A program made the translations under genes and the position numbers. DNA of 64,000 bases from Parcubacteria group bacterium (GTDB lineage Bacteria; Patescibacteriota; Minisyncoccia; SW-4-49-11). The stretch is from positions 343,598 through 407,597 of the forward strand of contig CALRBF010000001.1 in assembly GCA_943354045.1 (NCBI GenBank), given 5' to 3'. The notes beneath the pieces were generated by a model that saw only the letters and a list, made by a program, of their open reading frames with translations, searched no databases and was not told the DNA's origin. Positions 10,972-60,616 of this stretch are shown here, one piece after another (position 1 is the first letter of the stretch; the number at the start of each line of letters is the position of its first letter).

Positions 10972-11748
10972 ATGCATACAGTTAAGTTAAAAAAATTATA
11001 TTATTCCTATGAGAAGACAAAAGTGTTTCAAAATAATACTCTTGTTTTAGAAGTGTCTCAAAATCAGAAAAATAAATTATATGGAATTATTGGACCCTCT
11101 GGAACAGGTAAAACTACATTATTATCTATATTAGGAGGACAATTAAAACCACAAAAAGGATCGGTATATATTGATGATATTAATATATATGAAGTTGGCG
11201 ATAAGGAGCGGCGAAATATCATAGCGGTACAAATGCAAACAGCTACCGCCCTGAGAGGGACTTTACGCGAGAATTTAGTTTTTGGAATTCAAGAAGATGA
11301 GGTCTTGAATAAAGATGAGTATTTGATTGATGTCTTGAGGCGAGTGGGCTTATGGAGCCTTTTTGAGAATAAAGATGGTCTTGATACTCTAATCGGAGAG
11401 GGTGGTGTTAATTTGTCTGGAGGGCAGAGACAAAGATTAAATTTTGCAGGATTATATTTGAGAGCAAAACATTATAAACCAAGTTTAATCCTAATTGATG
11501 AGCCAACTTCTTCCCTAGATGAAATCAGTGAGCGGGCAATTACTCAAATGATAGATGAATTATCCCAAAAATCAGTCACCTTTGTAGTAGCTCATAGACT
11601 CAAAACTCTAGACCAAGCTGTAGGTATATTAGACACTTCTCTAATCCCAACTTACCCAGAACTCAAATTCTATAACAAAGATGAGTTGATGACAGTCTCC
11701 CAATATTACAGGGACCTCCAAGCCGGCAAAGCTCAGTTGGAGGAATAG
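10972..11748 (+). CDS. ABC transporter ATP-binding protein
   Basis: Walker A GPSGTGKTT, signature LSGGQRQR, Walker B LILIDEPTSSLD. Confidence 0.85.
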   Translation: MHTVKLKKLYYSYEKTKVFQNNTLVLEVSQNQKNKLYGIIGPSGTGKTTLLSILGGQLKPQKGSVYIDDINIYEVGDKERRNIIAVQMQTATALRGTLRENLVFGIQEDEVLNKDEYLIDVLRRVGLWSLFENKDGLDTLIGEGGVNLSGGQRQRLNFAGLYLRAKHYKPSLILIDEPTSSLDEISERAITQMIDELSQKSVTFVVAHRLKTLDQAVGILDTSLIPTYPELKFYNKDELMTVSQYYRDLQAGKAQLEE

Positions 11749-11756
11749 GGTTTTTA

Positions 11757-11855
11757 CTCTGGATTATTGAGAATATATCTCCTCTCTATAAAGTTTTTAA
11801 TTTACACATATCATCAATTAATGATATCAAAATATTTCCGTTTATTGAGGGGTGA
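11757..11855 (+). repeat. Full copy of the about 100-bp dnaE-3'-end-derived repeat
   Basis: Begins CTCTGGATTATTGAGAATATAT, which is the dnaE terminal coding sequence. On the minus strand it still reads ...RRYILNNPE-stop. Confidence 0.85.
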
Positions 11856-11879
11856 TATTCCAGTATAAGAAATCAGTTT

Positions 11880-12596
11880 TTAAATTATATTTACATAAAA
11901 ATATTCCCAAAATGCTTCTAATATACTCCATATACCAAAGCCGAAAAACATCAGCATTACTGAGTTTGCAATAAAGACTAAAAACAGGACTAAAAATATT
12001 ATAATAAGGGGTTTATTGTATAATCTATTATGTCCAACAACTGGATAACTGATATTGTTGTCTAAATCGGAGGTCTTTACAAGGCTAGTATCAAGAGAGG
12101 GTTTTTTGTTACGATGATACAAAATAAATATAGGAACTATAAGAAATGACCATATAAGGAATAATATTATATGTACACCTATAAATATAATAGGCAAGAA
12201 ATTCCAATCATTATTTCCATCAGGAGATAATGTCATAATAAAGCTTAATATTGTAACTATAAAGAGGGCTAAAATACTATCTCTATATCGAGACCAAGAT
12301 ATTGTCTTATAAAACGTCAAAAACCAATAAAGAAACCAAACTAAAGGCAATGTTGCTGCGGCCATAAAGAATATATAATACAGAAAACCTACGTCAAAGT
12401 TAGAGGTAGCACTTATAAACACTAGTGATAAGTATAATATCAGTATAAGGGATATCACCACGATATAATTTTTAGTATACCTATGTATTTTATTTTGATT
12501 AGGAGTAGTATTTGGTGCTTTGCTATAAATATCTTTAATTTCTTGCAAATTACTATTAACTGAGGGTTGTTCCTGATTTAAATTTATTTCATCCAT
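11880..12596 (-). CDS. hypothetical polytopic membrane protein (cassette cargo)
   Basis: Several TM helices. The N-terminus (MDEINLNQEQ...) is paralogous to 12752-13684. Confidence 0.4.
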   Translation of the reverse strand: MDEINLNQEQPSVNSNLQEIKDIYSKAPNTTPNQNKIHRYTKNYIVVISLILILYLSLVFISATSNFDVGFLYYIFFMAAATLPLVWFLYWFLTFYKTISWSRYRDSILALFIVTILSFIMTLSPDGNNDWNFLPIIFIGVHIILFLIWSFLIVPIFILYHRNKKPSLDTSLVKTSDLDNNISYPVVGHNRLYNKPLIIIFLVLFLVFIANSVMLMFFGFGIWSILEAFWEYFYVNII

Positions 12597-17378: not shown

Positions 17379-19301
17379 ATGATCAAAGCTAAAAGAGTAC
17401 AAAAAGGGTTCACCCTACTCGAGATATTATTAGTAATAGCAGCAATAGGGATATTAGCGGCAATAATATTGGTGGCAATAAACCCCAATAGACAATTAGC
17501 ACAAGTAAGGAATGCAGAGAGGAGATCAGAAATAAATACAATATACAAAGCCCTAGAACAATATCTAATAGATACAAGGAGTTATCCCACAGGGATAACA
17601 ACATCAATACAAGATATATGTATAAATGGAAACACAACAAATTGTGTAAATTTAGGAGTATTAGTCCCCGACTATATAGCAGCAATACCAATAGATCCAG
17701 GAGGAGGGGCTTATAGAGTGGTAATAAATACAAGTAATAATAGAGTATCCGTATATGCCAGTAATGCAGAACTAGGACAGGGTATAGGTATCAATGACCG
17801 ACCTTGGACCCCTGCAAACATCAGTACGGCGCTTTGGTTGGATGCAGCGGATGCCAGCACGATCACGCTCAATGGCAGCACTGTTAGCCAGTGGAACGAC
17901 AAAAGCGGGAATGCGAAACACGCTACGCAAGCAACGGCTGCTAATCAGCCTGCATACACGGCCAGTGGTTTGAACGGTAAGCCAGTGCTGACTTGGGACG
18001 GAGGTAACGACGTGCTGAACACTGCATCAGCACTCAATCACCCTGTAAGCATCTACTCTGTTGCTCAACTTAGCGGTGCCACGAATTCAACAAGGGGGAT
18101 TGTTGGGTCAGGAAGTCAATCTTATTCCCTTGGCACTCTTAGCTCATCACCTGCTGCGACCTCCGCATATGCACTTTGGAATCCGTTCCTCAACGGCGGC
18201 GCGTACATAAACAACACGGCAACAACAGACCCTGTTGTTCTTGGTAGCACTACCGTTTCCAACGTCGAAAACACTTGGAATACTTATGTGAACGGCAGCA
18301 ATGCTGGGCAGGCAATTTGGGATACTGGCACGCCCGCGGCGCCTGGCTTTATTAGGATCGGCTACAGCGGCGTCGGCAGTGAATATTGGCTGGGCACTAT
18401 TGCTGAAGTAGTTATCACCTCGACAACCCTTTCCACCACCGACCGCCAAAAACTTGAAGGCTACCTCGCCTGGAAATGGGGCTTAACAAATAATTTACCA
18501 GCCAATCACCCATATAAATGGAATGGGACTGAATTTGGAGGAGTAAATATTACAGATACAGATGCCCAAACTTATATTGCAGCGGTAGAAACTGCAGATG
18601 GGCAGTCTTTAGAGAATAATACAAGATTAGCTATTCAAAACTTTATAGTTGGAGCAAAAACAGATGGTATATGGGATGCTATAAAATCATCTAATATACT
18701 AGCAGGAGCCAGAACTTTGACTGGAGCATTAGTACCCTTGAAGGGTACGGCACCGACAAACTTCAACTTTGTAAGTGGAGATTATAACAGGAAGACGGGA
18801 CTGGTGGGGAATGGGAGCACGAAGTATCTAGATAGCAATCGGAATAACAATGCTGATCCGCAAAACAGCTTTCACGTATCTGCGCAGATTTCATCGGCAC
18901 ATTCATTGTTGACGAATAGCACGTATATTGGTGCTGGAAATAGTGTTCCTGGACTTACTCATTTGGGAGCAGCCCGTCTAAGTGGCCTAGACACCTTGTT
19001 TTTTAGAAATCGCAGCACTACCGACATCCAAAGTGGTTCTGCTGGCACCACAGGTTTTATTGGAATGTCTAGACCAAATTCAACATCCATCAACTATCGT
19101 TTTAACTCTACGACCGCAACTGGAGCACTTACATCAGAAACTCCTTTTAACGGTAATTTGTTGATTTTTGGTCGAGTCGTTGGGCAACCATATATTGCTG
19201 GCCGTATCGCCTTCTACAGCATCGGGGAATCCCTAAACCTCGCCCTGCTGGATGCCAGGGTCACCCAACTTATGACAGATTTAGGTAATGCAATTCCATA
19301 A
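17379..19301 (+). CDS. Type IV pilin-like protein with two LamG/concanavalin-A-like domains
   Basis: Prepilin leader MIKAKRVQKG|FTLLEILLVIAAIGILAAI. The C-terminal region carries LamG-like motifs (LWLDAADASTI..SQWNDKSGN, EGYLAWKWGL). GC-rich segments at about 17800-18480 and 18720-19290. Confidence 0.7.
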   Translation: MIKAKRVQKGFTLLEILLVIAAIGILAAIILVAINPNRQLAQVRNAERRSEINTIYKALEQYLIDTRSYPTGITTSIQDICINGNTTNCVNLGVLVPDYIAAIPIDPGGGAYRVVINTSNNRVSVYASNAELGQGIGINDRPWTPANISTALWLDAADASTITLNGSTVSQWNDKSGNAKHATQATAANQPAYTASGLNGKPVLTWDGGNDVLNTASALNHPVSIYSVAQLSGATNSTRGIVGSGSQSYSLGTLSSSPAATSAYALWNPFLNGGAYINNTATTDPVVLGSTTVSNVENTWNTYVNGSNAGQAIWDTGTPAAPGFIRIGYSGVGSEYWLGTIAEVVITSTTLSTTDRQKLEGYLAWKWGLTNNLPANHPYKWNGTEFGGVNITDTDAQTYIAAVETADGQSLENNTRLAIQNFIVGAKTDGIWDAIKSSNILAGARTLTGALVPLKGTAPTNFNFVSGDYNRKTGLVGNGSTKYLDSNRNNNADPQNSFHVSAQISSAHSLLTNSTYIGAGNSVPGLTHLGAARLSGLDTLFFRNRSTTDIQSGSAGTTGFIGMSRPNSTSINYRFNSTTATGALTSETPFNGNLLIFGRVVGQPYIAGRIAFYSIGESLNLALLDARVTQLMTDLGNAIP

Positions 19302-48635: not shown

Positions 48636-48664
48636 TTGACAAAATAGGGTTTTTGTGGTATATA
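48636..48664 (+). promoter_or_regulatory. Consensus sigma70-type promoter (TTGACA - 17 nt - TATATA)
   Basis: TTGACA at 48636-48641, a 17-nt spacer, TATATA at 48659-48664. Drives the GC-rich non-coding region. Confidence 0.5.
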
Positions 48665-48671
48665 TAATAGT

Positions 48672-49066
48672 GTAAATTTGCTCTTTGCAAATGGCCGACA
48701 TCTCTTTCACAGCGTCCTCGGACTCGGAAAAGAGAGGGGAGAAAGTTCAACTCCCCCCCTTCCTCAAGGTGAATCGGGATCGGGTGAAGCTCGACCCTCC
48801 CCTTCCTCCTCGGAGGAAGGGGACGCTCTCATGGAGGGCTTTCATTGGGATCTCCGCTGCTTTGGCTGCAGGAGGTCTGATACTGGGGGATCGATGGGGG
48901 GCTCCAGTCCCCATTACCATCATCCCCCATCAGGGGAATGTCGGAGGGGTTTCAGCAACACCCTCAAGGGAGACAGGATTACCCCGTGTCTCACAACCCT
49001 CCCCCGAAGTCTACCAAGACTGAAGGAACTCTCATCTTAACTTAGCCCCCGCATTTGCTGGGGGCT
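48672..49066 (+). ncRNA. Candidate structured non-coding RNA (about 395 nt, unknown class)
   Basis: Consensus promoter upstream. An intrinsic terminator (GCCCCCGCA..TGCTGGGGGC plus T-tract at 49045-49075) downstream. About 58% GC. Many hairpins (CCTTCCTCCTCGGAGGAAGG, GAGACAGG..CCGTGTCTC). No plausible ORF; translations are low-complexity G/S/P-rich. Confidence 0.4.
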
Positions 49067-49075
49067 TTTTCTTTT

Positions 49076-49435
49076 CTAATGATTTCTGATTACAATTTGT
49101 TTGTCTATCTCAGTCGCTTGGAATATTCTAGCAATTTCATCAAATAGACTTTTGGCATTGTCATCATTATCTTTGGTATAATTACAGGTAAAAACATTCA
49201 AACTCACATATCCAAATTCTGGCCAAGTATGAAAAGTAATATGGGATTCAGCCAAGACCACTGCTCCGGTAATCCCAGGCTCAAAAGAATGATAATAACT
49301 TCCAAGCTCATGAAAGCCATATTTTTTAATCAAAGCAGAAATTTGTATCTTTAATTCCTCAGTTTTCAAATGAACCAAAAAAATATTATCAATACCTTTT
49401 AAATCTCCAACAATCTCTATACCCAAATTTTTCAT
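49076..49435 (-). CDS. speH: S-adenosylmethionine decarboxylase proenzyme (small SpeH/SpeD type)
   Basis: AESHITFHTWPE with the pyruvoyl-forming Ser, about 119 aa. Confidence 0.8.
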   Translation of the reverse strand: MKNLGIEIVGDLKGIDNIFLVHLKTEELKIQISALIKKYGFHELGSYYHSFEPGITGAVVLAESHITFHTWPEFGYVSLNVFTCNYTKDNDDNAKSLFDEIARIFQATEIDKQIVIRNH

Positions 49436-49519: not shown

Positions 49520-50284
49520 TTAGTAGCCTTCCTTGGGGGAGGTTGTGTAGGCCACGCCATTCATAGTAGGGCGCACTGTTTTGGGTAGTGACACTCTATT
49601 GCGATGGGGGCTACAAGTTAGTGTATGTGCATTTCTTATCATTTCTGTTCTTAAGTCTGGGAAGGGGATTCCCAAGATTCCTTTATCAGGATTGGGTGAC
49701 ACCCAATCACTTAAATGGTCGCAATATAGACTATGCCTATTAACAAAGCATTTTTGAGTACGCCCATATTGCAAAGTTACCCAGCCATCTGGGGTATTAA
49801 TACGACGCTCTCCTTTATCGAATACAACCACTAAATCGAAATCACTATTAAATATGTTCCTTGCGCTGTGGAGATTAGGTATATATAATAATGTTAAATC
49901 TCTCACAGTCATCACTACAGATTTTGGGTTTGTTGGATGTGTCTGAATATCAGCAATAGGTATGTATCTAGGGCTTGATATAATTGTGTTGGATATAACG
50001 CAGTATTTACCCATCCATTCTATATGAATTGATGGATTTATGAGTAGCATGCATTTACGTATTCTATCTCTTATATATCCATTTGGATTGCCGATAAACT
50101 CAAACTCAATCAATAAATAATCAAGAGGAAGCTTTTGTGTCGTTTTGAGTTCATTGAAAAATCCTTCAATCTCTTCTGGTAGCAACTGTATTATATAAAA
50201 GTAATAGAGTTGATTGAAACATGGATTTTTTCTTAGTCTCATGACAAGTCTCTGTTTGTGAAAGGGCAAATACATAAATATCAC
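49520..50284 (-). CDS. hypothetical protein
   Basis: ORF with moderately elevated GC and no recognised motif. Divergent from the ADO gene. Confidence 0.3.
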   Translation of the reverse strand: MIFMYLPFHKQRLVMRLRKNPCFNQLYYFYIIQLLPEEIEGFFNELKTTQKLPLDYLLIEFEFIGNPNGYIRDRIRKCMLLINPSIHIEWMGKYCVISNTIISSPRYIPIADIQTHPTNPKSVVMTVRDLTLLYIPNLHSARNIFNSDFDLVVVFDKGERRINTPDGWVTLQYGRTQKCFVNRHSLYCDHLSDWVSPNPDKGILGIPFPDLRTEMIRNAHTLTCSPHRNRVSLPKTVRPTMNGVAYTTSPKEGY

Positions 50285-50455
50285 ACAATTAAACTTTTGT
50301 CAATAATTAGTGCCAAATCTATTAAAGAATATATACAAAAAAAGCAAAATATCCTACAAAATACACATAAGATTTATTTATTATAATTATATACAAAACA
50401 AAATAAGAGGCGTATAATGAAAATGCCCCTTTAGATTTTTATCCAGCATCTAATT

Positions 50456-51157
50456 ATGACCCACACTGCTCTTTCTCAAGATGATGCCGTTCTTGACTTC
50501 ACCACTGCTGCCTACAAGGATGCCTACAGCCGCATCAACGCCATTGTGATCGAGGGCGAACAGGAAGCTCACGACAACTATCTCGCCCTTGGCACCCTGC
50601 TGCCCGAGCAGGCCGAGGAGTTGGACCGGTTGGCGCGGATGGAGATGAAGCACCTCAAGGGTTTCACCGCTTGTGGCGCCAATCTGGGGGTTGAGGCCGA
50701 TATGCAATTTGCTAAAGAGTTCTTCTTTCCCCTACATAATAATTTCCAAACGGCCTTAGCCGAGGGTAAATTGGTAACCTGTTTGCTGATTCAAGCTATA
50801 CTTATCGAGGCCTTCGCCATCGCTGCCTATCATATTTATATCCCGGTGGCCGATCCGTTTGCCCGGAAAATCACCGAGGGAGTGGTGAAAGATGAATACA
50901 CACATCTCAATTATGGTCAGGAATGGCTCAAGGCTCACCTTGAGGAGTCCCGTGCGGAACTGGAACAAGCCAATCGCGACAATCTTCCCTTAATACGGTT
51001 CATGCTCGATGGCGTGGCTGCCGATGCCGCTGCTTTGGGTATGGACAAGGAGGACCTGATGGCCGACTTCATGACCTCTTATCAGGAGGTGCTCACCGAA
51101 ATTGGTTTCACCTCCCGGGAGATTGCCCGGATGGCCGCTGCTGCTCTGCTCGGCTGA
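50456..51157 (+). CDS. ado: Aldehyde-deformylating oxygenase (cyanobacterial ADO, ferritin-like di-iron)
   Basis: Matches the cyanobacterial ADO family as recalled from memory: [78 protein letters not shown]. About 55% GC, well above the surrounding sequence. Confidence 0.85.
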
Positions 51158-51295
51158 CCCACAACTCAAACCATACCTCTTCTTGCATTAGCTAGAAGGG
51201 GTTTTTTATAAATAAGATGAAGAAATATCGTAGACAAAACAACTATAAATAGTTATAGTTACAATAGAATAATAAAAATAATTGTTTCATACTAT

Positions 51296-52021
51296 ATGGA
51301 TAATGTGTATCAACCAATACATACTTTAAAATTAATCAGTGAAAATGTATGGATTGTAGATGGCCCTATAATACATTTTTATGGAATGCCGTTTACGACA
51401 CGTATGGTGGTGATAAGACTTGTCAATAATGATATTCTCATACACTCTCCAATTAATTTGACCAGTTCTCTCAAAAAAGAGTTAGATGAGTTAGGCAATG
51501 TCAAATATCTAATCTCACCGAATAAAATTCACTATTGGTATATACAGGATTTTCAAAAAGCTTATCCGGAAGCTATTACTTTTGCTAGTGATGGAGTGCA
51601 AAAGCGAAGTCAGCAAGCAGGGCAATCAATACGATGGGATAGGGAATTAAAAGATATAGATCGGGATTATTTCCCAGACTTAGAAATTCTGCCTATGTCT
51701 GGTAATAGATTTATGACTGAATATACTTTTTTTCATATCCCTAGTAAATCTTGGATTGTGACGGATATCATAGAAAACTTTGAGCCTAATAAAATCAATC
51801 CATTTTTTAGAATTTTAGCCTATTTAGGAGGGGCTTTGCACCCAAATGGCGGTACAACGAGAGACCAGAGAACATTATTCTGGGGTAATCATCAGCTATT
51901 AAATAAATCTATAGACAGAATTAAATCATTGAGTCCTGATAGAATTATAATGGCACATGGTAAAATATTAGATCAAGACATAGCCTCCGAGCTAAACAGA
52001 ATTTTTGCCTGGGTTGGGTGA
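51296..52021 (+). CDS. hypothetical protein (DUF4336-like, tentative)
   Basis: Size about 240 aa. Assignment from memory of the DUF4336 family; weak. Confidence 0.3.
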   Translation: MDNVYQPIHTLKLISENVWIVDGPIIHFYGMPFTTRMVVIRLVNNDILIHSPINLTSSLKKELDELGNVKYLISPNKIHYWYIQDFQKAYPEAITFASDGVQKRSQQAGQSIRWDRELKDIDRDYFPDLEILPMSGNRFMTEYTFFHIPSKSWIVTDIIENFEPNKINPFFRILAYLGGALHPNGGTTRDQRTLFWGNHQLLNKSIDRIKSLSPDRIIMAHGKILDQDIASELNRIFAWVG

Positions 52022-52130
52022 GATGGGGGAGGGCTTTGTCTCTTTGTTCAATATAGTTAGTTATAATATATTGACAAAATGGGAGAAATATGATATTGTC
52101 TTTAGGCAATTTCTCAGGTAAACCTGTACT

Positions 52131-52406
52131 ATGACAACACTAAACCCACAAGATTTAGTTGAGTTCAATATCAATGAAGATGCTTACGGTCAAATCACAG
52201 ACGAAGGATGGAAACATTTGGAGAATACTGTAGGTGAAGATTACATTAAAAATTGCATCAAGCCAAGAGCTGTAGAGATTAATGGCGAAGTGTGGTATGA
52301 ATTGCTACTATGGAATTGGTTTGCATTATTCCCAGTTAAAAATGGTGTAAGATTACTTTTTGGTACTCGTATTCTATTTAAGAAATCAGATTTCAATTCG
52401 CTTTGA
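52131..52406 (+). CDS. hypothetical protein
   Basis: ORF only. Confidence 0.25.
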   Translation: MTTLNPQDLVEFNINEDAYGQITDEGWKHLENTVGEDYIKNCIKPRAVEINGEVWYELLLWNWFALFPVKNGVRLLFGTRILFKKSDFNSL

Positions 52407-52596
52407 GTTGCCATTGCTAGTCCAATAATTAAGAAATCCCTCTATCTTCAAGGTGGAGGGATTTTTACTTGTCTACAATCCCAAAAACAGCTTGTTATAG
52501 GTGCTTTGTATCCAATACACATAAACTTAGTATGGATTTATGTTACATGATATAATAAAACTATATTTACAAACCCCAAATTAATAAAGAAGTAAG

Positions 52597-53229
52597 ATGA
52601 ATATAACTATCATAGGGGCTTCGGCTGGAATAGGTTTAGAAGCGGTAAAAAGGGGATTAAATAGAAATCATTCTATCACAACACTTTCTCGATCTGAAGT
52701 TGAAATCGAGGATAAAAAATCATTAACAATGATACTTGGTGACGCCACCAATAAAGCCGACCTAATACAATCAATTCAAAATGCAGATGCTCTCATTATA
52801 ACATTGGGGACGAGACAAAGTATGAAGGCTACCACGCTTTTTTCAGATTTTGCAAAATTAATTGTAGAAATAGATAGAGAGAACAAAATAGATATTCCAG
52901 TCATTTTGGTTACCGGATTTGGAGCTGGAGAAAGTAAAAATTATGCCTCTTGGCCTGTAAAGATATTTTTGAATTTTTTCTTAAAAGATGTATATGCCGA
53001 TAAAACTAAAATGGAAGAAATTATCACTAACTCAGATCTAAATTGGACAATTGTGAGACCAGGCAGGTTATTAGATAAAGAATTAACAGAAAAATACCAT
53101 ATTGAAAATAAATTATTCAAAGGAATTAAAATTGGCGAAATTAGCAGAGCAGACTTAGCAGACTTTTTGATAAAACAGGCAGAAAAACAAACTGAATTAA
53201 AAAAATATATTACTATATCTGAAGAGTAG
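52597..53229 (+). CDS. NAD(P)H-binding protein (atypical SDR, NmrA/BVR-B-like)
   Basis: Rossmann motif IIGASAGIGLEAV at the N-terminus, about 210 aa. Confidence 0.6.
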   Translation: MNITIIGASAGIGLEAVKRGLNRNHSITTLSRSEVEIEDKKSLTMILGDATNKADLIQSIQNADALIITLGTRQSMKATTLFSDFAKLIVEIDRENKIDIPVILVTGFGAGESKNYASWPVKIFLNFFLKDVYADKTKMEEIITNSDLNWTIVRPGRLLDKELTEKYHIENKLFKGIKIGEISRADLADFLIKQAEKQTELKKYITISEE

Positions 53230-53393: not shown

Positions 53394-54812
53394 CTAGTTC
53401 ATGGTACGAACTCTATTTCTTACTTCTGCAAAAGTGGTTTCTCGTAGGAGATTCCCATTCTCAAAAACAGGCTGTAATAGATTTGGGGTATTGAGCTTGA
53501 TAGCCTCTTCTTCTCTTACTGTGCGATAATGACCGTCAGTATGAATAAGTGCGAGGCGCCCAGGCTTAGACTTTTTCCCAGGATCAGTTACGGGATCTTT
53601 GAGAACATCGTGCCAGGTATTATCGCGAAGTATAGCCGAGGCTTTTATCGCAAACTTTTGTGTATCACGATTAACCTTTTGTAGTAATCCACCACCCGAT
53701 CCAAATGCCAAGTTGTCAGCGGACCAACCAGCTTGCTCTATTGAGAAAAGAATTTTTCTCAGCATTTGATAGTCAATACCATCTCCTTGAATGATACGTA
53801 CTTTGGGGTTTAATACCCAATAGCCTTTATCATTTTTACTCTTTCCAAAATACTGGGCGAGTAGTTCAAGAACTTTTAGTACAACTTCAACTGGTTCTCC
53901 ACTGTCCGGGCGAATTACGAGCACTCCATCTCTTGCAAGCACCTGATCACGGAGTTTTGTCCCCCATAATTCAGAGCAAGCATGATAAATGTCATAGCTG
54001 TCACTCACTACGGCAACGAGGCCTTCTGGGAATTGATTGAGCATATTTCGATAGGAATCTATCTCATGCTCTTTACCCCAGCTTGTTACGGTGCTGTGCT
54101 CTGCTGCAGGTATGGAAAATCCCGCCATAGGCTCTTGATAGTAACGGCGAGCATAAATGATGCCCGCATAGGTGTCACTGCCAGAGAAAGCTGTTAAGTG
54201 GGCCATACCACCAATGCCTGCCGATTCAACCGAGGTTGAACCACGAAAGCCAAAATCATGTACTTTGAAATCAATGCCTGCAGGGTCACCCGTCTCTAGG
54301 AGAGACTGATAAACTGCATTACGCATTTGCCGGCTTTGAGTGGCAATGGTTGTTGGATACCATACTAGGGAGAGAATAGTCTCGAGGTAATTAGTAATCC
54401 ATGGTAACTCCGGGTCAGTATTCTCAATGGTCATGAGTACATTTCCTGTGGGGACGGTTAATCCCTCAGGAACTGCAGAAATGCGTACAGGTAATTTCCC
54501 ATTATGCACTTCTACGATTCTCTTCCAGCCATTTTCATTGAATAGCTTATCATTACCGAAATGGAGAGCATAATCATTTTTTGCTTCAGCTATATCTTCC
54601 AGAGCAACTCGTTTTCCAACAAGATATTCCATGAGATAGTATTGAAGGCCAAAAAATGTAACTTCTGGGAAAACTCCACCACGACTCTCAAAAAAGGAAT
54701 ACACCTTTTGAGTATTGGGTGGATATTGTTTCCAATGAGTAAATTTGTAGCTATCGGAAAGAAGAATGGTGTTCATGATGCCGCGCAGATTGAGGGTGTT
54801 TTGTTGAAGCAT
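53394..54812 (-). CDS. nadV: Nicotinamide phosphoribosyltransferase
   Basis: N-terminus NTILLSDSYKFTHWKQYPPNTQKVYSFFESR matches the NAMPT family; about 470 aa. Confidence 0.85.
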   Translation of the reverse strand: MLQQNTLNLRGIMNTILLSDSYKFTHWKQYPPNTQKVYSFFESRGGVFPEVTFFGLQYYLMEYLVGKRVALEDIAEAKNDYALHFGNDKLFNENGWKRIVEVHNGKLPVRISAVPEGLTVPTGNVLMTIENTDPELPWITNYLETILSLVWYPTTIATQSRQMRNAVYQSLLETGDPAGIDFKVHDFGFRGSTSVESAGIGGMAHLTAFSGSDTYAGIIYARRYYQEPMAGFSIPAAEHSTVTSWGKEHEIDSYRNMLNQFPEGLVAVVSDSYDIYHACSELWGTKLRDQVLARDGVLVIRPDSGEPVEVVLKVLELLAQYFGKSKNDKGYWVLNPKVRIIQGDGIDYQMLRKILFSIEQAGWSADNLAFGSGGGLLQKVNRDTQKFAIKASAILRDNTWHDVLKDPVTDPGKKSKPGRLALIHTDGHYRTVREEEAIKLNTPNLLQPVFENGNLLRETTFAEVRNRVRTMN

Positions 54813-54822
54813 GATAATCTCC

Positions 54823-55734
54823 TTAGAAACAGTGTTTGGGGTTGTTCTGAATAAATTGCAGGAGCATTTCTCCTAGGGGGATATGGCTTGGGATAAGATT
54901 CTCCTTAAAGGTATCAAGAGATATCCAATGAAGTTTATCGATATCATCGCCAGGTTCAGGTCGCCCAAAAATGTAGCGAGCTACAAAAAAACGAGTCATA
55001 ATACCGTCTCGCGTTTTTTTATAACGCCAGTCAGTAATACGGGTAGATCCAAGATAATGCCAATCAGCAACCTCAAAACTACCAGCCTCTTCTCGTAATT
55101 CTCGCTTAGCCGCAGCTTCATCAGAGATGTCTGTGTTATCCACAAATCCTCCGAAAAATCGAAACTTACCTTCATCCTGATATTTTTCCGCAAGTAAAAC
55201 CTGACTAGGTCTTATAACTGCAATATCAACCGTGCTATAGGTTTGGGGTGGGCGATTTTGTACTGCATGAATAACTCCCTGTCTCCAGGCGGTGGATTTA
55301 CCAATACGGTCACGAGTTATGGTGCGATACTTTGTCCCATTATAATCCCTGTAATTAGGAATGGTGATTATTGGATAACAACCACTATAATAGGGGATAA
55401 ATGAATCTCGGCCACCATAAAGTGTTACTATCGAATTTCTTGCAATACCAGCTATAAGATGATCAAGTTGCCGAGACCAAATATAGTCACTTGGATGATC
55501 AAACTGCTCAAGAATAATCGCATTTGGATATTCTTGAGCAATCATCTGAGCCCTGGCTGCAAAAGAAAGGGGGTCTTTATCTGAGGCAAGTCCACGGCTA
55601 CTACCAAGAATAATAAGAAGTCTCTCATGCTCAGACATAGCTGCCTCAATAATTCGATGATGTCCTGGATGTAGTTTTGCCACTTGAAAGCGACCAACTA
55701 CCACTCCAAGAGATGAGGGGGGAAGAACTACCAT
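54823..55734 (-). CDS. nadM: Bifunctional NMN adenylyltransferase / ADP-ribose pyrophosphatase (Nudix)
   Basis: Nucleotidyltransferase motif VVVGRFQVAKLHPGHH (HxGH). C-terminal Nudix box GGFVDNTDISDEAAAKRELREEAG. Confidence 0.8.
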   Translation of the reverse strand: MVVLPPSSLGVVVGRFQVAKLHPGHHRIIEAAMSEHERLLIILGSSRGLASDKDPLSFAARAQMIAQEYPNAIILEQFDHPSDYIWSRQLDHLIAGIARNSIVTLYGGRDSFIPYYSGCYPIITIPNYRDYNGTKYRTITRDRIGKSTAWRQGVIHAVQNRPPQTYSTVDIAVIRPSQVLLAEKYQDEGKFRFFGGFVDNTDISDEAAAKRELREEAGSFEVADWHYLGSTRITDWRYKKTRDGIMTRFFVARYIFGRPEPGDDIDKLHWISLDTFKENLIPSHIPLGEMLLQFIQNNPKHCF

Positions 55735-55762
55735 AGGATTACCATTTGTGAAAGAACATTAA

Positions 55763-55849
55763 CACTACTTAGTGTAACTAATACATTTAGTAAAGTTAAA
55801 AAAAGAAGTGTTAATTTAGATAGTGTATCAAATACAATAAGTATTGTCA
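55763..55849. promoter_or_regulatory. Candidate NrtR operator(s) upstream of nadM-nadV
   Basis: Perfect palindrome ACACTA-CT-TAGTGT (55763-55776). The 19-mer ATACAATAAGTATTGTCAA (55831-55849) recurs inverted at 56635-56653 in the nrtR/pnuC divergent region. Confidence 0.4.
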
Positions 55850-55880
55850 AATATATAAAAGGATTATGGATATAATCCTT

Positions 55881-56585
55881 TTATAGGACTTCTATTTCTT
55901 CAACTTTTTTTGAAGTCATACGATATAATTCTGCTGGTCGAAAGGCTCCATTTGCTCTTTTTTTACCAGTAGATTTTACAATATCAAGCTTGAGTATTTT
56001 TTTACGAAAATTACGTCTATCGAGATCATTTCCCAATATACTTTCAAAAGCTCTCTCTAATTCAGTAAGCGTAAATTCACGAGGAAGTAGTTGTCCTATT
56101 AGGGTAGTATAATGGACGCGAGAAGCCAATCTCTTTAATGCTGTTGCGAGAATTTCATCATGATCATATGCCAAATGTTTAGCAGTATGTACCGGTGACC
56201 AATAAATTGATCCTTTACTATCCTTTTCTTTAGTAGTTAATTTATCTTCTGAAATTAATCCAATATATCCAACAGCCACAACTCGTCCACGTGGATCACG
56301 ACTAATATTACTAAATGTAAATAGTTGCTCTAAATATACTTTTTTTGAATTAATATATCCTTTTTCATCAATAATACGGCGAGCTGCTTCTTCTGCAATT
56401 TCATCAGGACGAATAAGTCCACCAGGTAATCCAGGCTGATGTACAAAGTGTGGGGGACGATTGACTGTCATAAGTCTGACATATAAAGCCCCATCAAATA
56501 TAGTAAAAAGGACAATATCAGTAGCAAGTATTGCAAAGCGTAATGGGGTAGGGTTTTCTGGAGAATTAATAGGAGATTTTTTCAT
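55881..56585 (-). CDS. nrtR: NrtR-like Nudix-related transcriptional regulator of NAD metabolism
   Basis: N-terminal Nudix-like domain (GLPGGLIRPDEIAEEAARR, degenerate Nudix box). C-terminal winged-helix domain. Located between nadM/nadV and pnuC/nadR. Confidence 0.65.
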   Translation of the reverse strand: MKKSPINSPENPTPLRFAILATDIVLFTIFDGALYVRLMTVNRPPHFVHQPGLPGGLIRPDEIAEEAARRIIDEKGYINSKKVYLEQLFTFSNISRDPRGRVVAVGYIGLISEDKLTTKEKDSKGSIYWSPVHTAKHLAYDHDEILATALKRLASRVHYTTLIGQLLPREFTLTELERAFESILGNDLDRRNFRKKILKLDIVKSTGKKRANGAFRPAELYRMTSKKVEEIEVL

Positions 56586-56634
56586 ATAAACTCACTTTAT
56601 CATGCGATATTCTAGATGTCAATAATACAATAAC

Positions 56635-56668
56635 TTGACAATACTTATTGTATATAGTACACTAAGTA
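56635..56668. promoter_or_regulatory. Candidate NrtR operator in the nrtR / pnuC-nadR divergent intergenic region
   Basis: TTGACAATACTTATTGTAT (56635-56653) is the exact reverse complement of 55831-55849. TACACTAAGTA (56658-56668) matches the half-site at 55766-55776. Confidence 0.4.
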
Positions 56669-56692
56669 TATTATTAATTTAATTGTATCATT

Positions 56693-57397
56693 ATGACTAC
56701 TGATATTCGTCCTATAAAAGCTCTTATTGGAACTAGATATGAACATATTGAATCTGTGAAGGTAGCCGTGGCTATGGCTATAGTTGTATTCATATATGAA
56801 GCTATTTCATCATTTATTATACCAGATTTCCAACTAAATTGGTTTGAAATTATTGGTACTTGGACTGGACTTATATGTGTTTGGTTAGCAAGAACTCAAA
56901 ATATCCTTACATGGCTGTGGGGAATTATAAGTGTTGGGCTCCTTGGGTATTTCTTTGCCACAATAGGCCTTCCAGGACAACAATGGCTAAATTGGGGATA
57001 TTTCCTTATTATTCAGTTTTGGGCCTGGCCTCAATGGGCTTTTGGAGGTAAGCAAGCAACTGTACTACCTGTTACTCTTCTTACCAATAAAGCAAGATTA
57101 ATTCTTCTAGCAATAGCTTTACTAGCTACAGGTGTTATTTATTTTTTGATAGATATTATTGTCCCCGGATCAACTCTCCCATTATTGGATGCAACTGTTG
57201 TCGCAAGTAGTATAGTGGCTCAGTATTTACTTGGTCTCAAAAAAGTAGAAAGCTGGGTATTATGGCTAGGACCAGTTAATCTCCTCTCTATTATATTATT
57301 CTTTATAGCAGGGGCGTATACGGTAATGGCTCTCTATATTGCTTATTTCATCCATGCTATATGGGCCTTAAGAACTTGGTATCAAGAAGCGCGTTAA
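56693..57397 (+). CDS. pnuC: Nicotinamide riboside transporter PnuC
   Basis: 7-8 TM, W-rich motifs (WLNWGYF, QFWAWPQW) typical of PnuC. Confidence 0.8.
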   Translation: MTTDIRPIKALIGTRYEHIESVKVAVAMAIVVFIYEAISSFIIPDFQLNWFEIIGTWTGLICVWLARTQNILTWLWGIISVGLLGYFFATIGLPGQQWLNWGYFLIIQFWAWPQWAFGGKQATVLPVTLLTNKARLILLAIALLATGVIYFLIDIIVPGSTLPLLDATVVASSIVAQYLLGLKKVESWVLWLGPVNLLSIILFFIAGAYTVMALYIAYFIHAIWALRTWYQEAR

Positions 57398-57407
57398 TTA
57401 TACGAAT

Positions 57408-58373
57408 ATGTTTTACAATGGACTTGTAATTGGTAAATTTTACCCACCACATAAAGGACATAAATTCCTTATTGATACGGCGCAAAAAATGAGTGAAAAT
57501 CTAACCATTATTATTTGTGCTAAAGATAATGAAACTATTCCAGGAACTTTACGAGCGCAATGGCTATCACAAATACATCCTAAAGCTAAAATCATATTGA
57601 TCAATGATAATAAATTGGCTGATGATGATTCAGAAGGTTGGGCAAAATATACTGTAGATATACTAGGATTTGTACCAGATGCTGTTTTTACATCAGAAGA
57701 TTATGGAGATCCATATGCTCATTTTATGGGAAGTATACATGTACTTGTAGATAAAGAGCGTGCCACTATTCCGATATCAGGGACATTGGTGCGTAATAAC
57801 CCTACAAAATATATAAAATTTCTTGAACCAAATGTGAGAGCATATTTTACAAGAAGAATTGTAGTATTAGGGGCTGAATCAACGGGTACGACAACTTTAG
57901 CTAAAGCATTAGCACAGTATTATAATACGGTATGGGTGCCTGAATATGGACGATATTTTAGTGAAGGAAAACGTTTTGTAGGATATGGTGAAGGGGATTG
58001 GACTACTGCAGAATTTGTAGCTATTGCCAAAGCCCAAGCAAAATTTGAAGATTCTCTCGCTGAATCAAGTAAGGGGATAGTGATTTCTGATACTGATGCT
58101 TTTGCTACAGCTATTTGGCATGAAAGATATTTAGGTTTTCGTGCTCCAGAAGTAGAAGCAATCTCCGCTAATAGAAGAGTAGATCTCTATATAATAACAG
58201 GAGATGAAATTCCTTTTGAAGATGATGGACTTCGCGATGGGGAAAATATTCGACATGAATTGCACCAACTTTTTATTCAGCGTGTCATAGAAAGTAAAAA
58301 GCCATATATTATAGTACAAGGTAGTGTAGAAGAACGGCTACAAGTTGCGGTAGAGGCTATATATAAACTTTAG
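57408..58373 (+). CDS. nadR: NadR-type NMN adenylyltransferase / ribosylnicotinamide kinase (no HTH domain)
   Basis: HxGH motif GKFYPPHKGH; P-loop GAESTGTTTLAKALA of the RNK domain. Confidence 0.8.
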   Translation: MFYNGLVIGKFYPPHKGHKFLIDTAQKMSENLTIIICAKDNETIPGTLRAQWLSQIHPKAKIILINDNKLADDDSEGWAKYTVDILGFVPDAVFTSEDYGDPYAHFMGSIHVLVDKERATIPISGTLVRNNPTKYIKFLEPNVRAYFTRRIVVLGAESTGTTTLAKALAQYYNTVWVPEYGRYFSEGKRFVGYGEGDWTTAEFVAIAKAQAKFEDSLAESSKGIVISDTDAFATAIWHERYLGFRAPEVEAISANRRVDLYIITGDEIPFEDDGLRDGENIRHELHQLFIQRVIESKKPYIIVQGSVEERLQVAVEAIYKL

Positions 58374-58382
58374 GAAATATAA

Positions 58383-59106
58383 AAGAGGAGACAAAAACCT
58401 CCTCTTTTATATTTTGGCTCCGGAAGCTGGACGACGTTCGAACCTTTGAGTGGGGGATATAGGTACTTACCTCACCCCTTTCTCACTATAGTTTTGGAGA
58501 AATGAAAAAGCCCCCGCAGTGGCGGGGGTGTGTGCTGAGTAATTGCTACTCAGGGGGTTTTCAAAGTTTCCCCAAGTTTTTGGCCTACTTGATGTAATGC
58601 GACAGCTGGCCACAGTGCAGTTGTACCTAGACCTATCACTAGTTGGGATCTAGATAGCTCTCCTTTCGGGAATTCTGGGCCAAAGGCACCTATACCGACG
58701 GAAAAACCGACCCCCAGTAGTGAGTATGACACTGAGTATGACACCAATACGATCCATGGAAATAGATCGATGGACTTTGCTGGTGCTTCTGGAGCAGTGG
58801 GGGTTGGGCTCTCAGTAGTCATTGGGAATAACGAACATTAGCAAGAATAACATACCACATTTTCCCAATTTTGTCAATATCAAACAACATTATATTCTAA
58901 CTTATACTTTACTTATATATAAACCAAAAAACAGCTAAAATAAGCCGTTTAAAGGGAGCGGGCTCCGCGAGTAGGATTGCAAACCAGTCGTGAATGAGAT
59001 TCACTCCTTGGAACCACTCGGTTCCAATACCTCCACCACGGGAAACTCCCGTTTCCCGACCCCTTCCCCAGGTTCTCATCCTACTCTCTCAAAAGACAAG
59101 AAATAT
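58383..59106 (-). repeat. Tandem unit A (724 bp): terminator + tRNA-3'-end-like element E + small 2-TM ORF + promoter + pseudo-3'-exon fragment
   Basis: Near-identical in organisation and sequence to unit B (59107-59889). The terminator AAAGAGGAGACAAAAA(C/T)CTCC..TTTT is identical to the one following the real tRNA at 59890-59916. Confidence 0.75.
58550..58822 (-). CDS. small hypothetical 2-TM membrane protein (unit A)
   Basis: 90 aa. N-terminus MTTESPTPTAPEAPAKSIDLFPWIVL and C-terminus ALHQVGQKLGETLKTP are identical to the unit B paralog. Own terminator hairpins downstream. Confidence 0.4.
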   Translation of the reverse strand: MTTESPTPTAPEAPAKSIDLFPWIVLVSYSVSYSLLGVGFSVGIGAFGPEFPKGELSRSQLVIGLGTTALWPAVALHQVGQKLGETLKTP

Positions 59107-59889
59107 AAAAGAGGAGACAAAAATCTCCCCTTTTATATTTTGGCTCCGGAAGCTGGACGATGTTCGAACCTTTGAGTGGGGGGTATAAGTACCTACCTCA
59201 CCATCTCCTCACTATAGGTTGGGAGAAATAAAAAGCCCCCGCAGTGGCGGGGGTGTGTGCTGAGTAATTGCTGCTCAGGGGGTTTTCAAAGTTTCCCCAA
59301 GTTTTTGGCCTACTTGATGTAATGCAACAAATGGCCACGCAGCGGTGATACCTGTTATCACTACTGTCTGGGGCAGTGTGAGTAGTTCTTGCGGGTATCT
59401 TGAACCTAAGATACCCTTGGTAAAACCTATTCCCAGCATTGTGTATGATGCCAATACGATCCATGGAAATAGATCGATGGACTTTGCTGGTGCTTCTGGA
59501 GCAGTGGGGGTTGGGCTCTCAGTAGTCATTGGGAATAACGAACATTAGCAAGAATAACATACCACATTTTCCCAATTTTGTCAATACCAAACAACATTAT
59601 ATTCTAACTTATACTTTACTTATATATAAACCAAAAAACAGCTAAAATAAGCTGTTTAAAGGGAGTGGTCTCCGCGAGTAGGATTGCAAACCAGTCGTGA
59701 ATGGGATTTACTCCTTGGAACCACTCGGTTCCAATACCTCCACCACGGGAAACTACCATTCCCATCAATCCCCCCACACCCCGTCTCGGACACCTACGGT
59801 TTCCGACACTCGGAGTAAACTCCTCGCTGCCTTCCTGTCCAGGGGGACTGATACCCCTTCCCCAGGTTCTCATCCTATACTCTCTCAAA
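59107..59889 (-). repeat. Tandem unit B (783 bp), paralog of unit A
   Basis: See unit A. Confidence 0.75.
59275..59529 (-). CDS. small hypothetical 2-TM membrane protein (unit B)
   Basis: 84 aa, paralog of 58550-58822. Confidence 0.4.
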   Translation of the reverse strand: MTTESPTPTAPEAPAKSIDLFPWIVLASYTMLGIGFTKGILGSRYPQELLTLPQTVVITGITAAWPFVALHQVGQKLGETLKTP

Positions 59890-59974
59890 AGATAAGAAAT
59901 ATAAAAGAGGAGACAAAAATCTCCCCTTTTATATTTTGGCTCCGCGAGTAGGATTCGAACCTACGACCAATCGG

Positions 59975-60530
59975 TTACACCTTATCCAAGTATTTCTACA
60001 AGGCGTGGACTATATCATCATCCATCATAGTGATGGAGCGAGGCGCTTCCACTGTATTGCTACAATGTACTCCCTTGCGGGATAGTCTCTGAACCTTCCT
60101 GAGATTTCTCAGGCTTGGCTGCTGATTTCCATAATGTTTCCATCTTAGGGTTCCAGCAATTCACCTCGTGTTTCAACTTCTGTTACCAGAAGAAGCTGCA
60201 ACTAGACCCGCATGAATTTCTTTGTGGCAGTTAGAGCATACCAATACACATTTATCGAGTTCATCTTTCATTTTATCCCAAGATCTTGTAATTCCTTTAT
60301 AGGATATTCCAAAGTCTTTTTGATTGGGATCAGTGTGATGAAATTCTAATGCATCTGTACAGGTATTGTATCCACATAAGGAGCATTTATCTCCCAAGTA
60401 AGATACAGCTTTTTTCTTGAGAAGTTTTCTTCTCTGAGAAACTGCATTTTTAAGATATTCAGCACGATCAGAATATTTTCTTTTGCCAGGCATACTAATA
60501 TAATTAGGTGTACGATGACTCAAGAAGGTA
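59975..60530 (-). mobile_element. Group I intron (about 556 nt) carrying an HNH homing endonuclease ORF
   Basis: Conserved R element GGTTCAGAGACTA (60083-60095, minus) and S element GATATAGTCC (60007-60016, minus) form P7. A candidate IGS GCAGCC is complementary to the exon end GGCUGU with a U-G wobble. Confidence 0.7.
60173..60493 (-). CDS. HNH homing endonuclease (intron-encoded)
   Basis: CSLCGY..EFHHTDPN..CVLVCSNCHKEIH is an HNH/zinc-finger motif. The start is chosen at MPGKRK; the ORF-track start at 60535 is the tRNA anticodon GTG itself. Confidence 0.7.
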   Translation of the reverse strand: MPGKRKYSDRAEYLKNAVSQRRKLLKKKAVSYLGDKCSLCGYNTCTDALEFHHTDPNQKDFGISYKGITRSWDKMKDELDKCVLVCSNCHKEIHAGLVAASSGNRS

Positions 60531-60616
60531 TTCACAGCCGACTGCTCTACCGCTGAGCTATCGCGGAATTAGATTTGAAAGGTACTTGTATATTGTACCG
60601 AATAAGAGAGATATAG

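Follow-up and report, generated by a model that had tools for sequence, protein, structure and literature searches.

How does an ultra-small heterotrophic bacterium come to carry an enzyme that has been described as unique to cyanobacteria (PMC3903477)? The question is raised by a stretch of 64,000 nucleotides from a Parcubacteria group genome (contig CALRBF010000001.1, positions 343,598 to 407,597), referred to here as the window. A preliminary description, made from the letters alone, had recognised in it the gene of a cyanobacterial-type aldehyde-deformylating oxygenase (ADO). The answer that seems probable is an ancient capture of a picocyanobacterial ADO gene, which has been kept in a functional-looking state and repeatedly refreshed by homologous recombination. 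The protein is a plain member of the ADO family; what differs is its residence in Patescibacteria and the recurrent rewriting of its gene. No paper linking ADO to Patescibacteria was found in the literature, a large survey of freshwater members of the candidate phyla radiation (CPR) does not mention it, and no report was found of a recurrently overwritten, donor-homologous locus in Patescibacteria.

The host DNA examined comprises the window and syntenic loci of about 20 kb from the same lineage. Loci in a CPR context are L003-L014, L018, L088 and the contig P0007, while L001 and L002 carry the window allele. ADO comparisons used 82 cyanobacterial genes, and blastn searches used 85 cyanobacterial loci consisting of ADO and its immediate flanks. 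Loci were classed as CPR or cyanobacterial from their flanking genes and GC content; the N-terminus of the protein failed as a classifier, since P0007 and P0011 have cyanobacterial-looking N-termini in a CPR context. All sequences are short-read metagenome assemblies, and mosaicism was tested on the assembled contigs. The reference for composition was the set of 55 other open reading frames (ORFs) of at least 110 aa in the window.

Identity of the oxygenase and its residence in Patescibacteria

The gene and the elements that frame it are:

50456-51157 (+): ADO coding sequence, 233 aa, matching in family models, metal ligands and structure
50390-50418 (+): promoter-like site TATACA-17 nt-TATAAT, 10 of 12 matches in a consensus scan; putative promoter
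51176-51207 (+): terminator-like hairpin with an 8-bp stem (cctcttct/agaagggg), a 10-nt loop and T6; putative terminator
50482-51165 (+): the sole part of the window that resembles picocyanobacterial DNA at the nucleotide level (blastn against the 85 cyanobacterial loci)

The ORF lies exactly where it had been placed (50456-51157, forward strand, 233 aa), and the four peptide strings first quoted for it all occur in the translation, at residues 20-38, 63-74, 111-125 and 135-154. The profile PF11266 (Ald_deCOase) matches with an E-value of 2e-114 and 381 bits (cut-off 28), with 218 of its 218 positions covered, and the NCBIfam equivalog TIGR04059 with 387 bits (cut-off 222.65). The best solved relative is the ADO of Prochlorococcus marinus MIT9313 (2OC5/4KVQ; E 5e-112, 76-77% identity). 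The preliminary description had staked its identification on the alignment of the di-iron E and H residues, and all six ligands of the non-haem site do align (E35, E63, H66, E118, E147 and H150). They correspond to Glu45, Glu73, His76, Glu128, Glu157 and His160 of the P. marinus enzyme (two E-x-x-H motifs and two further glutamates). All six are kept in each of the 10 CPR alleles and are invariant across the 82 cyanobacterial sequences; moreover, the window allele has no change at the 125 positions that are invariant in the 82 cyanobacterial ADOs.

An AlphaFold2 model built from a 41-sequence alignment (pLDDT 89.3), which replaced a poor single-sequence prediction (pLDDT 54), has eight helices in a ferritin-like fold. 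It superposes on the P. marinus ADO structure 4KVQ with a TM-score of 0.92-0.96 and a root-mean-square deviation (rmsd) of about 1.0 Å, and the top 26 Foldseek matches are all ADO crystal structures (TM 0.88-0.98, rmsd 0.9-1.5 Å). The eight-helix ferritin-like fold, the six ligands and the 125 invariant residues are shared with cyanobacterial ADO (PMT1231, 2OC5/4KVQ), whereas the N-terminus is shortened and lineage-specific and the GC content at third codon positions (GC3) is lower (0.62 versus 0.75-0.85). Both family models, the ligands and the fold agree with the cyanobacterial-type identity first proposed and, as judged from its sequence, the window gene is a real, full-length ADO.

The host had been supposed to be a reduced, non-photosynthetic, low-GC bacterium, and its closest genome records bear this out. 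When the alanine racemase gene, 2 kb upstream of ADO, is compared with one genome per species, these records are four metagenome-assembled genomes (MAGs) at 88-95% identity, each of which bears the label Candidatus Paceibacteria, Paceibacterota or Saccharibacteria. Cellular genes in the window encode DnaE, UvrB, the DNA polymerase III delta subunit, SSB, ribosomal protein S6, a peptide-chain release factor, FtsEX, YchF and HisRS, together with a type IV pilin-like protein, an M23/LysM peptidase and a secreted SNase-type nuclease.

Assembly chimerism and contamination, both raised in the preliminary description, do not account for the gene. The exact ADO protein was found on NCBI, Logan and ENA contigs, and 982 nt comprising ADO and its flanks are identical in the window, in Logan L001 (ERR3997377) and in ENA L002 (MEHR18-3). 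Two further CPR alleles are each identical across 3-4 assemblies. Diverged alleles (73-89% aa identity) occupy the same slot in L003-L014 and L018, with the AdoMet decarboxylase gene on one side and DUF4336 or NAD(P)H-binding genes downstream, and this syntenic slot is filled in at least nine further independent contigs or MAGs; on the shorter contigs L088 and P0007 the CPR context is visible on one side only.

The flanks of the cassette are themselves conserved. An AT-rich stretch of about 70 nt upstream of the gene recurs in L003, L007, L008, L009, L012-L014 and L018, even where the upstream gene is a different one. The hairpin lies 19 nt past the ADO stop codon, and about 50 nt of downstream sequence are conserved in CPR loci even when the next genes differ. 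(A simple terminator scan missed this hairpin because its loop is longer than 8 nt.) Cyanobacterial ADO flanks have nothing in common with these CPR flanks, and blastn against the 85 cyanobacterial loci found no trace in the window of a gene for acyl-ACP reductase (AAR) or of intergenic DNA from cyanobacteria. Because the flanks are identical across assemblies, the slot is shared and the CPR flanks are conserved, chimerism and contamination are excluded as the origin of the gene.

Foreign origin and internal mosaicism

The ADO gene has a GC content of 0.536 in a window of 0.349, and its GC3 of 0.62 compares with 0.24 ± 0.053 in the other 55 ORFs (z = 7.1), with a sharp GC step at both ends of the gene. 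The figures given initially were about 55% for the gene and roughly 32% for the genome, and the foreign composition that they conveyed is real. Among named proteins, the nearest belong to Cyanobium, Vulcanococcus and Synechococcus MAGs (80-87% identity). Loci L016/L017 and L019 were verified as cyanobacterial by their gene order (creatininase-ADO-AAR-accA-SDR-folE) and their GC content of 67-69%, and a metagenome scan gave 79 more cyanobacterial loci, with flanks of 58-72% GC, some of them from the same sample series as CPR contigs (GROS21-1, KRAE22-1). Non-host composition, nesting inside the donor group and host-type flanks, the marks of horizontal transfer, are all found. An origin from a high-GC cyanobacterium, as originally suggested, is therefore upheld by the GC3 deviation, the Cyanobium-type nearest proteins and the GC content of the donor loci, and the donors appear to be freshwater picocyanobacteria of the Cyanobium/Synechococcus type.

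The same suggestion had spoken of a recent transfer, and this part does not stand if a single event is meant: the cassette occurs in several species, and the nucleotide comparison, which might have revealed near-identity to a cyanobacterium, puts the whole gene at only about 79% identity to the closest cyanobacterial genes sampled. A phage or plasmid vector was also considered and rejected, as no ADO-carrying contig was found in phage, plasmid and IMG/VR collections.

The history of the gene is better read from its parts. Nucleotide identity between the window and L003 is distributed as follows:

upstream 254-aa gene: 100%
PadR gene: 100%
288-aa membrane-protein gene: 99.8%
alanine racemase gene: 99.3%
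250-nt bins, most of those in 43.5-50.3 kb and all but two in 53.3-58 kb: 100%
ADO gene: 82.5% (dS 0.86)

A sliding-window comparison with the 82 cyanobacterial ADO genes resolves the window allele into distinct tracts:

50498-50613 (+): Cyanobium-type recent tract (gene nt 43-158), 3 mismatches in 116 nt to L019
50683-50783 (+): AT-richer tract (gene nt 228-328, GC about 0.42), common to the CPR alleles L007 and L008
50936-51157 (+): 3' segment (gene nt 481-702), in which six CPR alleles including the window form their own clade

The mosaic character that had been suspected from an AT-rich internal patch is thereby borne out: tracts 97-100% identical to cyanobacterial genes stand beside divergent, AT-richer CPR tracts. 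The patch itself is also seen (GC 0.445 in bins 50700-50899, 0.42-0.43 in gene nt 226-315). Within nt 48-225 of the window gene, 26 of 30 informative sites are L019-like, against 21 of 124 outside (max-chi-square, permutation p <= 0.003). The AT-richer tract is 91-98% identical to L007/L008, and its identity to cyanobacterial genes is only 63-78% for the greater part of its length; all 35 of its 35 informative sites are L007-like rather than L009-like. It is therefore an older, ameliorated tract. The least cyanobacteria-like part of the window gene is nt 481-600 (best match 72-83%).

Other CPR alleles are built in a similar manner. L009 is 97% identical to cyanobacterial L019 over nt 85-452, with a 119-nt exact run to L048, and reaches at most 80% identity to any cyanobacterial gene over nt 481-600. 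L003 has 3 mismatches to the cyanobacterial L048 in nt 235-335. Exact runs shared with cyanobacterial genes measure 56-119 nt. Max-chi-square tests of four parent/recombinant triplets all reached the permutation floor (p <= 0.003); for L009, 67 of 68 informative sites within nt 90-447 are cyanobacterial-like, compared with 16 of 66 outside. Neighbour-joining trees differ between segments. Monophyly of all CPR alleles was recovered in 0 of 100 bootstrap replicates, and the clade of six CPR alleles that includes the window in 99 of 100 for nt 481-699 but 0 of 100 for nt 46-450, where L003 and L009 group with the cyanobacterial L019 and L048 (64 of 100). L012 and L014 are 85-86% aa-identical to Cyanobium-type sequence and 72-77% to other CPR alleles. 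Intragenic mosaicism with tracts close to present-day donors is therefore significant on the assembled contigs. The near-identical tracts, the max-chi-square results, the segment-specific tree incongruence and the affinity of L012 and L014 argue that the slot was filled once at a fixed site and later overwritten several times, in part or as a whole, from cyanobacteria as well as among CPR strains.

Composition records the opposite process. GC3 is 0.46-0.73 in the CPR alleles, against 0.75-0.85 in cyanobacteria, and is lowest in L012 and L014, the alleles without a recent tract. Positions with A/T in CPR where the cyanobacterial gene has G/C outnumber the reverse by about 3:1 (96 versus 31 for the window against L019). 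The direction of this drift, and the low GC3 of the alleles without recent tracts, suggest that AT-ward amelioration of ADO opposes GC-rich imports and that the patchy composition is an age-stratified mosaic.

Selection, proposed history and competing explanations

No internal stop codon occurs in the 10 CPR alleles. Their pooled pN/pS is 0.19, compared with 0.18 in cyanobacteria, and in the CPR-specific 3' segment the values are 0.26 and 0.25-0.30, respectively. ADO in the CPR lineage thus appears to be under purifying selection. Since this selection is cyanobacteria-like and the protein has 76-77% identity to characterised enzymes, the window ADO most likely converts a fatty aldehyde into the Cn-1 alkane and formate, at the expense of O2 and four electrons. 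Individual substitutions seen near functional positions are T149A in L014, beside the ligand H150, and D200A in L008, in the helix that binds AAR in cyanobacteria. The acidic surface of helix 7 binds AAR in the Synechococcus elongatus complex (PMC7089970). The window allele keeps the acidic helix-7 residues E199, D200, D204 and E211, as in the donors. This retention may only reflect recency, because this part of the gene was recently cyanobacterial-like: the stretch is 95% nt-identical to cyanobacterial sequences.

In the cyanobacterial AAR-ADO pathway, exemplified by L016 and L019, AAR and accA adjoin ADO, the AAR gene being normally the next one downstream, whereas the host here is a non-photosynthetic Patescibacterium without an adjacent AAR-accA pair. 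The aldehyde substrate would then come from elsewhere: possible sources are a reductase encoded at another site, lipids scavenged from the host, or aldehydes formed by lipid oxidation in an oxic, illuminated habitat. The flexible neighbourhood of the cassette varies by strain; in different strains it includes a CMAS-type methyltransferase, SnoaL, SOUL and MAPEG proteins, an alpha/beta hydrolase, a peroxiredoxin and the NAD(P)H-binding atypical SDR, which at most hints at lipid or redox housekeeping.

A history consistent with these data would begin in the ancestor of a small freshwater clade of Patescibacteria, which may have captured ADO from picocyanobacteria of the Cyanobium/Synechococcus type. 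The gene would have settled at one fixed position in the chromosome, flanked by a promoter and a terminator of host type, where the AT-biased mutation pressure of the CPR genome would slowly reduce its GC content. Imported picocyanobacterial DNA and other CPR alleles would in turn replace parts of it by homologous recombination and restore GC-rich sequence. The lasting similarity of the resident copy to the ADO genes of cyanobacteria would make such recurrent replacement possible; exact runs of 56-119 nt seem long enough to seed RecA-type homologous recombination. The outcome would be highly divergent mosaic alleles within otherwise near-identical genomes.

The likely route of uptake is natural competence and transformation. 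Saccharibacteria are naturally competent, with comEC-dependent homologous recombination, and com genes are conserved across the CPR (PMC10633639). The window encodes a 640-aa protein with a type IV pilin N-terminal methylation motif (17379-19301, forward strand; GC 0.448, GC3 z 2.6) and a secreted SNase plus Excalibur nuclease (3220-4101, forward strand), and both could belong to a machinery for DNA capture and uptake. A parallel exists in the psbA and psbD genes of cyanophages, which are likewise cyanobacterial genes in a compositionally different genome, under purifying selection and mosaic by exchange with the donor; reportedly, as credited to Zeidner et al. 2005 and Sullivan et al. 2006, they swap segments with host genes and have patchy GC content. 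Here, in contrast, the recipient is an ultra-small cellular bacterium, and natural transformation is likelier than co-infection. The case also resembles the known combination of competence and gene acquisition in Patescibacteria, in that metabolic genes of other bacteria enter a CPR genome; according to one report (PMC12455944), Patescibacteria horizontally acquire genes of their hosts and communities.

The explanations that compete with this history differ in what they make of the cyanobacteria-like sequence. That cyanobacterial reads were joined into a low-GC contig is scarcely credible: a chimera could produce the sharp GC step at both gene ends, and picocyanobacteria do co-occur in sample series GROS21-1, but the window, Logan ERR3997377 and ENA MEHR18-3 agree in every letter of ADO and its flanks, the slot is filled in many related contigs and MAGs, the gene is merely about 79% nt-identical to its nearest cyanobacterial relatives, and the conserved CPR flanks reach its start and stop codons. 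It is unlikely that a single ancient transfer suffices, with allelic diversity arising from CPR-CPR recombination and uneven amelioration and with the cyanobacteria-like tracts maintained by constraint. The insertion site and flanks common to all alleles, the CPR-specific 3' segment of six alleles, the coding of the conserved active site by the central region and the lack, in L012 and L014, of any tract more than 92% identical to a sampled cyanobacterium would all suit a single transfer. It fails to explain why L009 is 95-100% identical to L019/L048 over nt 181-450, synonymous sites included, where the median over the 82 cyanobacterial genes is 70-87% and identity to other CPR alleles falls to 83-88% in several windows. 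Nor does it predict a 119-nt exact run between genomes of 36% and 68% GC, the failure of all-CPR monophyly (0 of 100) or the position of L012 and L014, which are nearer to Cyanobium-type sequence (86% aa) than to other CPR alleles (72-77%).

Two further explanations accept that the gene is borne by CPR cells. In one, judged quite unlikely, assembly has created the mosaics artificially, through path switching or bubble merging between the true CPR allele and an abundant cyanobacterial one; donor-type cyanobacteria do live in the same lakes. Against this, alleles recur with 0 differences in 3-4 separate assemblies, the window allele was recovered through different assembly pipelines, and the L003-type allele stands beside two different small-ORF cassettes (L003 versus L005). 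Moreover, the window and L009, from differently named sample series, have the same three differences from L019 within their tract, and tracts are swapped among CPR alleles as well, where no abundant cyanobacterial path is involved. In the other, which is very improbable, ADO is a decaying, non-functional relic, present only through recent acquisition. The lack of a nearby AAR partner, the damage or loss in individual loci described below and a dN/dS of 0.31 between L012 and L014, a sign of mild relaxation, speak for a relic; 10 alleles without internal stops and with all ligands, pN/pS equal to that of cyanobacteria even in the CPR-specific segment, conserved promoter-like and terminator-like elements of its own, and retention in several species, with dS values of 0.2-0.4 reached in their flanking genes, speak against it.

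Several points nevertheless weigh against an ancient, functional and repeatedly refreshed ADO. All the data being short-read assemblies, switching between graph paths could in principle give false mosaics. Part of the low dN/dS goes back to the cyanobacterial donors rather than to the CPR lineage. L012 and L014, the most ameliorated alleles, have 4-6 conservative changes at positions invariant in cyanobacteria, and in L013 a 3'-terminal frameshift changes the final few residues and extends the protein by 13 aa, read from the conserved sequence downstream. L015, from a more distant related species, has a truncated DUF4336 gene and no ADO cassette at this site, which suggests that the cassette was lost. 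Partners are also missing: as the preliminary description had noted, no AAR is adjacent, and tblastn with the Cyanobium-type AAR of L016 gave no match in the 64 kb window or in L001-L015 (best E > 3). Likewise, neither a match to plant-type ferredoxin or flavodoxin nor a CxxCxxCxxxCP motif was found within the window. Finally, uptake of free environmental DNA would be expected to leave the same recombination signal as contact with living donors.

The surrounding region and biological meaning

The genes that adjoin the ADO cassette are:

49076-49435 (-): AdoMet decarboxylase; GC3 z 0.2
49520-50284 (-): neighbour of unassigned family, 254 aa, divergent upstream gene, 100% nt-identical in L003; GC3 z 1.7
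51296-52021 (+): DUF4336 protein, 241 aa, downstream neighbour of host-like composition; GC3 z 0.8
52597-53229 (+): NAD(P)H-binding atypical SDR (PF13460), 210 aa, downstream of the ADO cassette; GC3 z 0.0

With GC3 z-scores of only 0.0 to 1.7, these neighbours are not compositionally atypical, contrary to the preliminary description. The product of 49520-50284 matched no family among Pfam and NCBIfam profiles. In L007 a CMAS-type methyltransferase replaces this gene, and in L008 a 52%-identical homologue of the 254-aa protein adjoins ADO, with the CMAS gene beyond. Outside the CPR group, named homologues of the DUF4336 protein come from Scytonema hofmannii, a Microcoleaceae MAG and a Cyanobacteriota MAG (43-45% identity), with others in MAGs of Alphaproteobacteria/Rhodospirillales; an old cyanobacterial origin of this neighbour is possible. 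Most full-length CPR loci have the NAD(P)H-binding SDR at most a few kb downstream of the cassette, though L012 and L014 do not, and any role for it alongside ADO is speculation.

The 48.6-53.3 kb region is a patchwork of exchangeable cassettes. The AdoMet decarboxylase is 88% aa-identical to that of L003 (dN/dS 0.59) and 76% to those of L012/L014, in backbones whose alanine racemase is 90-99% identical; its divergence between near-identical backbones suggests that the recombination-hot region extends beyond ADO. Between the DUF4336 and NAD(P)H-binding genes, the window and L003 have unrelated small ORFs (52131-52406, forward strand, versus 11657-11929, reverse strand, in L003) and do not align in 52050-52550, despite being otherwise near-identical strains.

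A second GC-rich island (58% GC) lies at 48636-49066 (forward strand), between the alanine racemase and AdoMet decarboxylase genes. Its gene starts with ATG at 48691 and encodes a Pro-rich protein of 110 aa with one predicted membrane helix and the motifs LPPFLK and LDPPLPPR. A near-perfect promoter (TTGACA at 48636-48641, 17 nt, TATATA) precedes the gene, and a strong terminator follows it (49044-49066). The island recurs in L005, L007, L008, L009, L012-L015 and L018, duplicated whole in L008; promoter and terminator are conserved, and the coding interior is hypervariable or non-homologous. Only 2 homologues of the protein were found in 5.8 billion sequences. Two other identities were rejected: a structured RNA (no Rfam match for 48680-49040 even at E <= 1) and a second cyanobacterial fragment (no blastn match to the cyanobacterial loci), the comparison of loci indicating a hypervariable small membrane-protein gene.

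Further downstream, an NAD salvage island (53394-58373) encodes NAMPT (GC 0.43, GC3 z 2.3), a NadM-like/Nudix protein, an NrtR-type regulator, a PnuC transporter and a NadR-like kinase. Loci L003 and L004 have this island at about 100% identity; L007-L010 and L018 lack it and have SOUL, GrpB or other genes in its place. A cyanophage derivation of its NAMPT/NadM part (53.4-55.7 kb) was rejected, as identity to the NAMPT of many unrelated phages is only about 50%. At 58380-59830 there is a tandem duplication with units of about 710-725 bp (copies 89-97% identical; GC 0.42-0.46, above that of the genome), each encoding a small membrane-like protein that starts with MTTESPTPTAPEAPAKSIDLFPWIV (58550-58822 and 59275-59529, reverse strand) and ending like the 3' end of a tRNA. 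A group I intron (Rfam RF00028, 73 bits; 59986-60224, reverse strand, flanks 59930-60290) lies directly upstream, on that strand, of a tRNA-like T-arm, acceptor and CCA end (gtaggttcgaatcctac...gcca, about 59933-59967), and ARAGORN called no tRNA anywhere in the 64 kb window. The site looks like an intron-split tRNA gene; such genes are reported for Patescibacteria in a preprint (bioRxiv 10.1101/2025.07.03.662931). An ORF with a CxxC...HH...CxxCH pattern (60173-60535, reverse strand) overlaps the 5' side of the intron and may encode a homing endonuclease.

The recombination record of ADO suggests frequent contact between this lineage and picocyanobacterial DNA, which would fit an epibiotic, predatory or scavenging association. 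A more specific idea can be offered only tentatively: the clade would live or feed on picocyanobacteria, ADO would serve as a homology anchor that is overwritten through competence and so records the Cyanobium contacted, and the enzyme would turn fatty aldehydes of the host into alkanes, or detoxify them, without AAR. If this were true, it would be the first ADO-dependent chemistry outside cyanobacteria, in a cell without lipid synthesis of its own. The lipids of such CPR cells are presumably scavenged, and a conserved, selected and AAR-uncoupled ADO in ultra-small heterotrophs raises the question of how aldehyde and electrons are supplied and of what benefit alkane formation or aldehyde removal may bring.

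The hosts of Patescibacteria are mostly unknown, and tracts that are 97-100% identical to specific Cyanobium-type lineages provide a testable pointer to a partner or DNA source. As a host-tracing signal, ADO tracts could be followed through lake time series. More generally, recurrent gene conversion from a donor can keep a long-resident gene away from the composition of its host, so that by GC content it continues to look recent.

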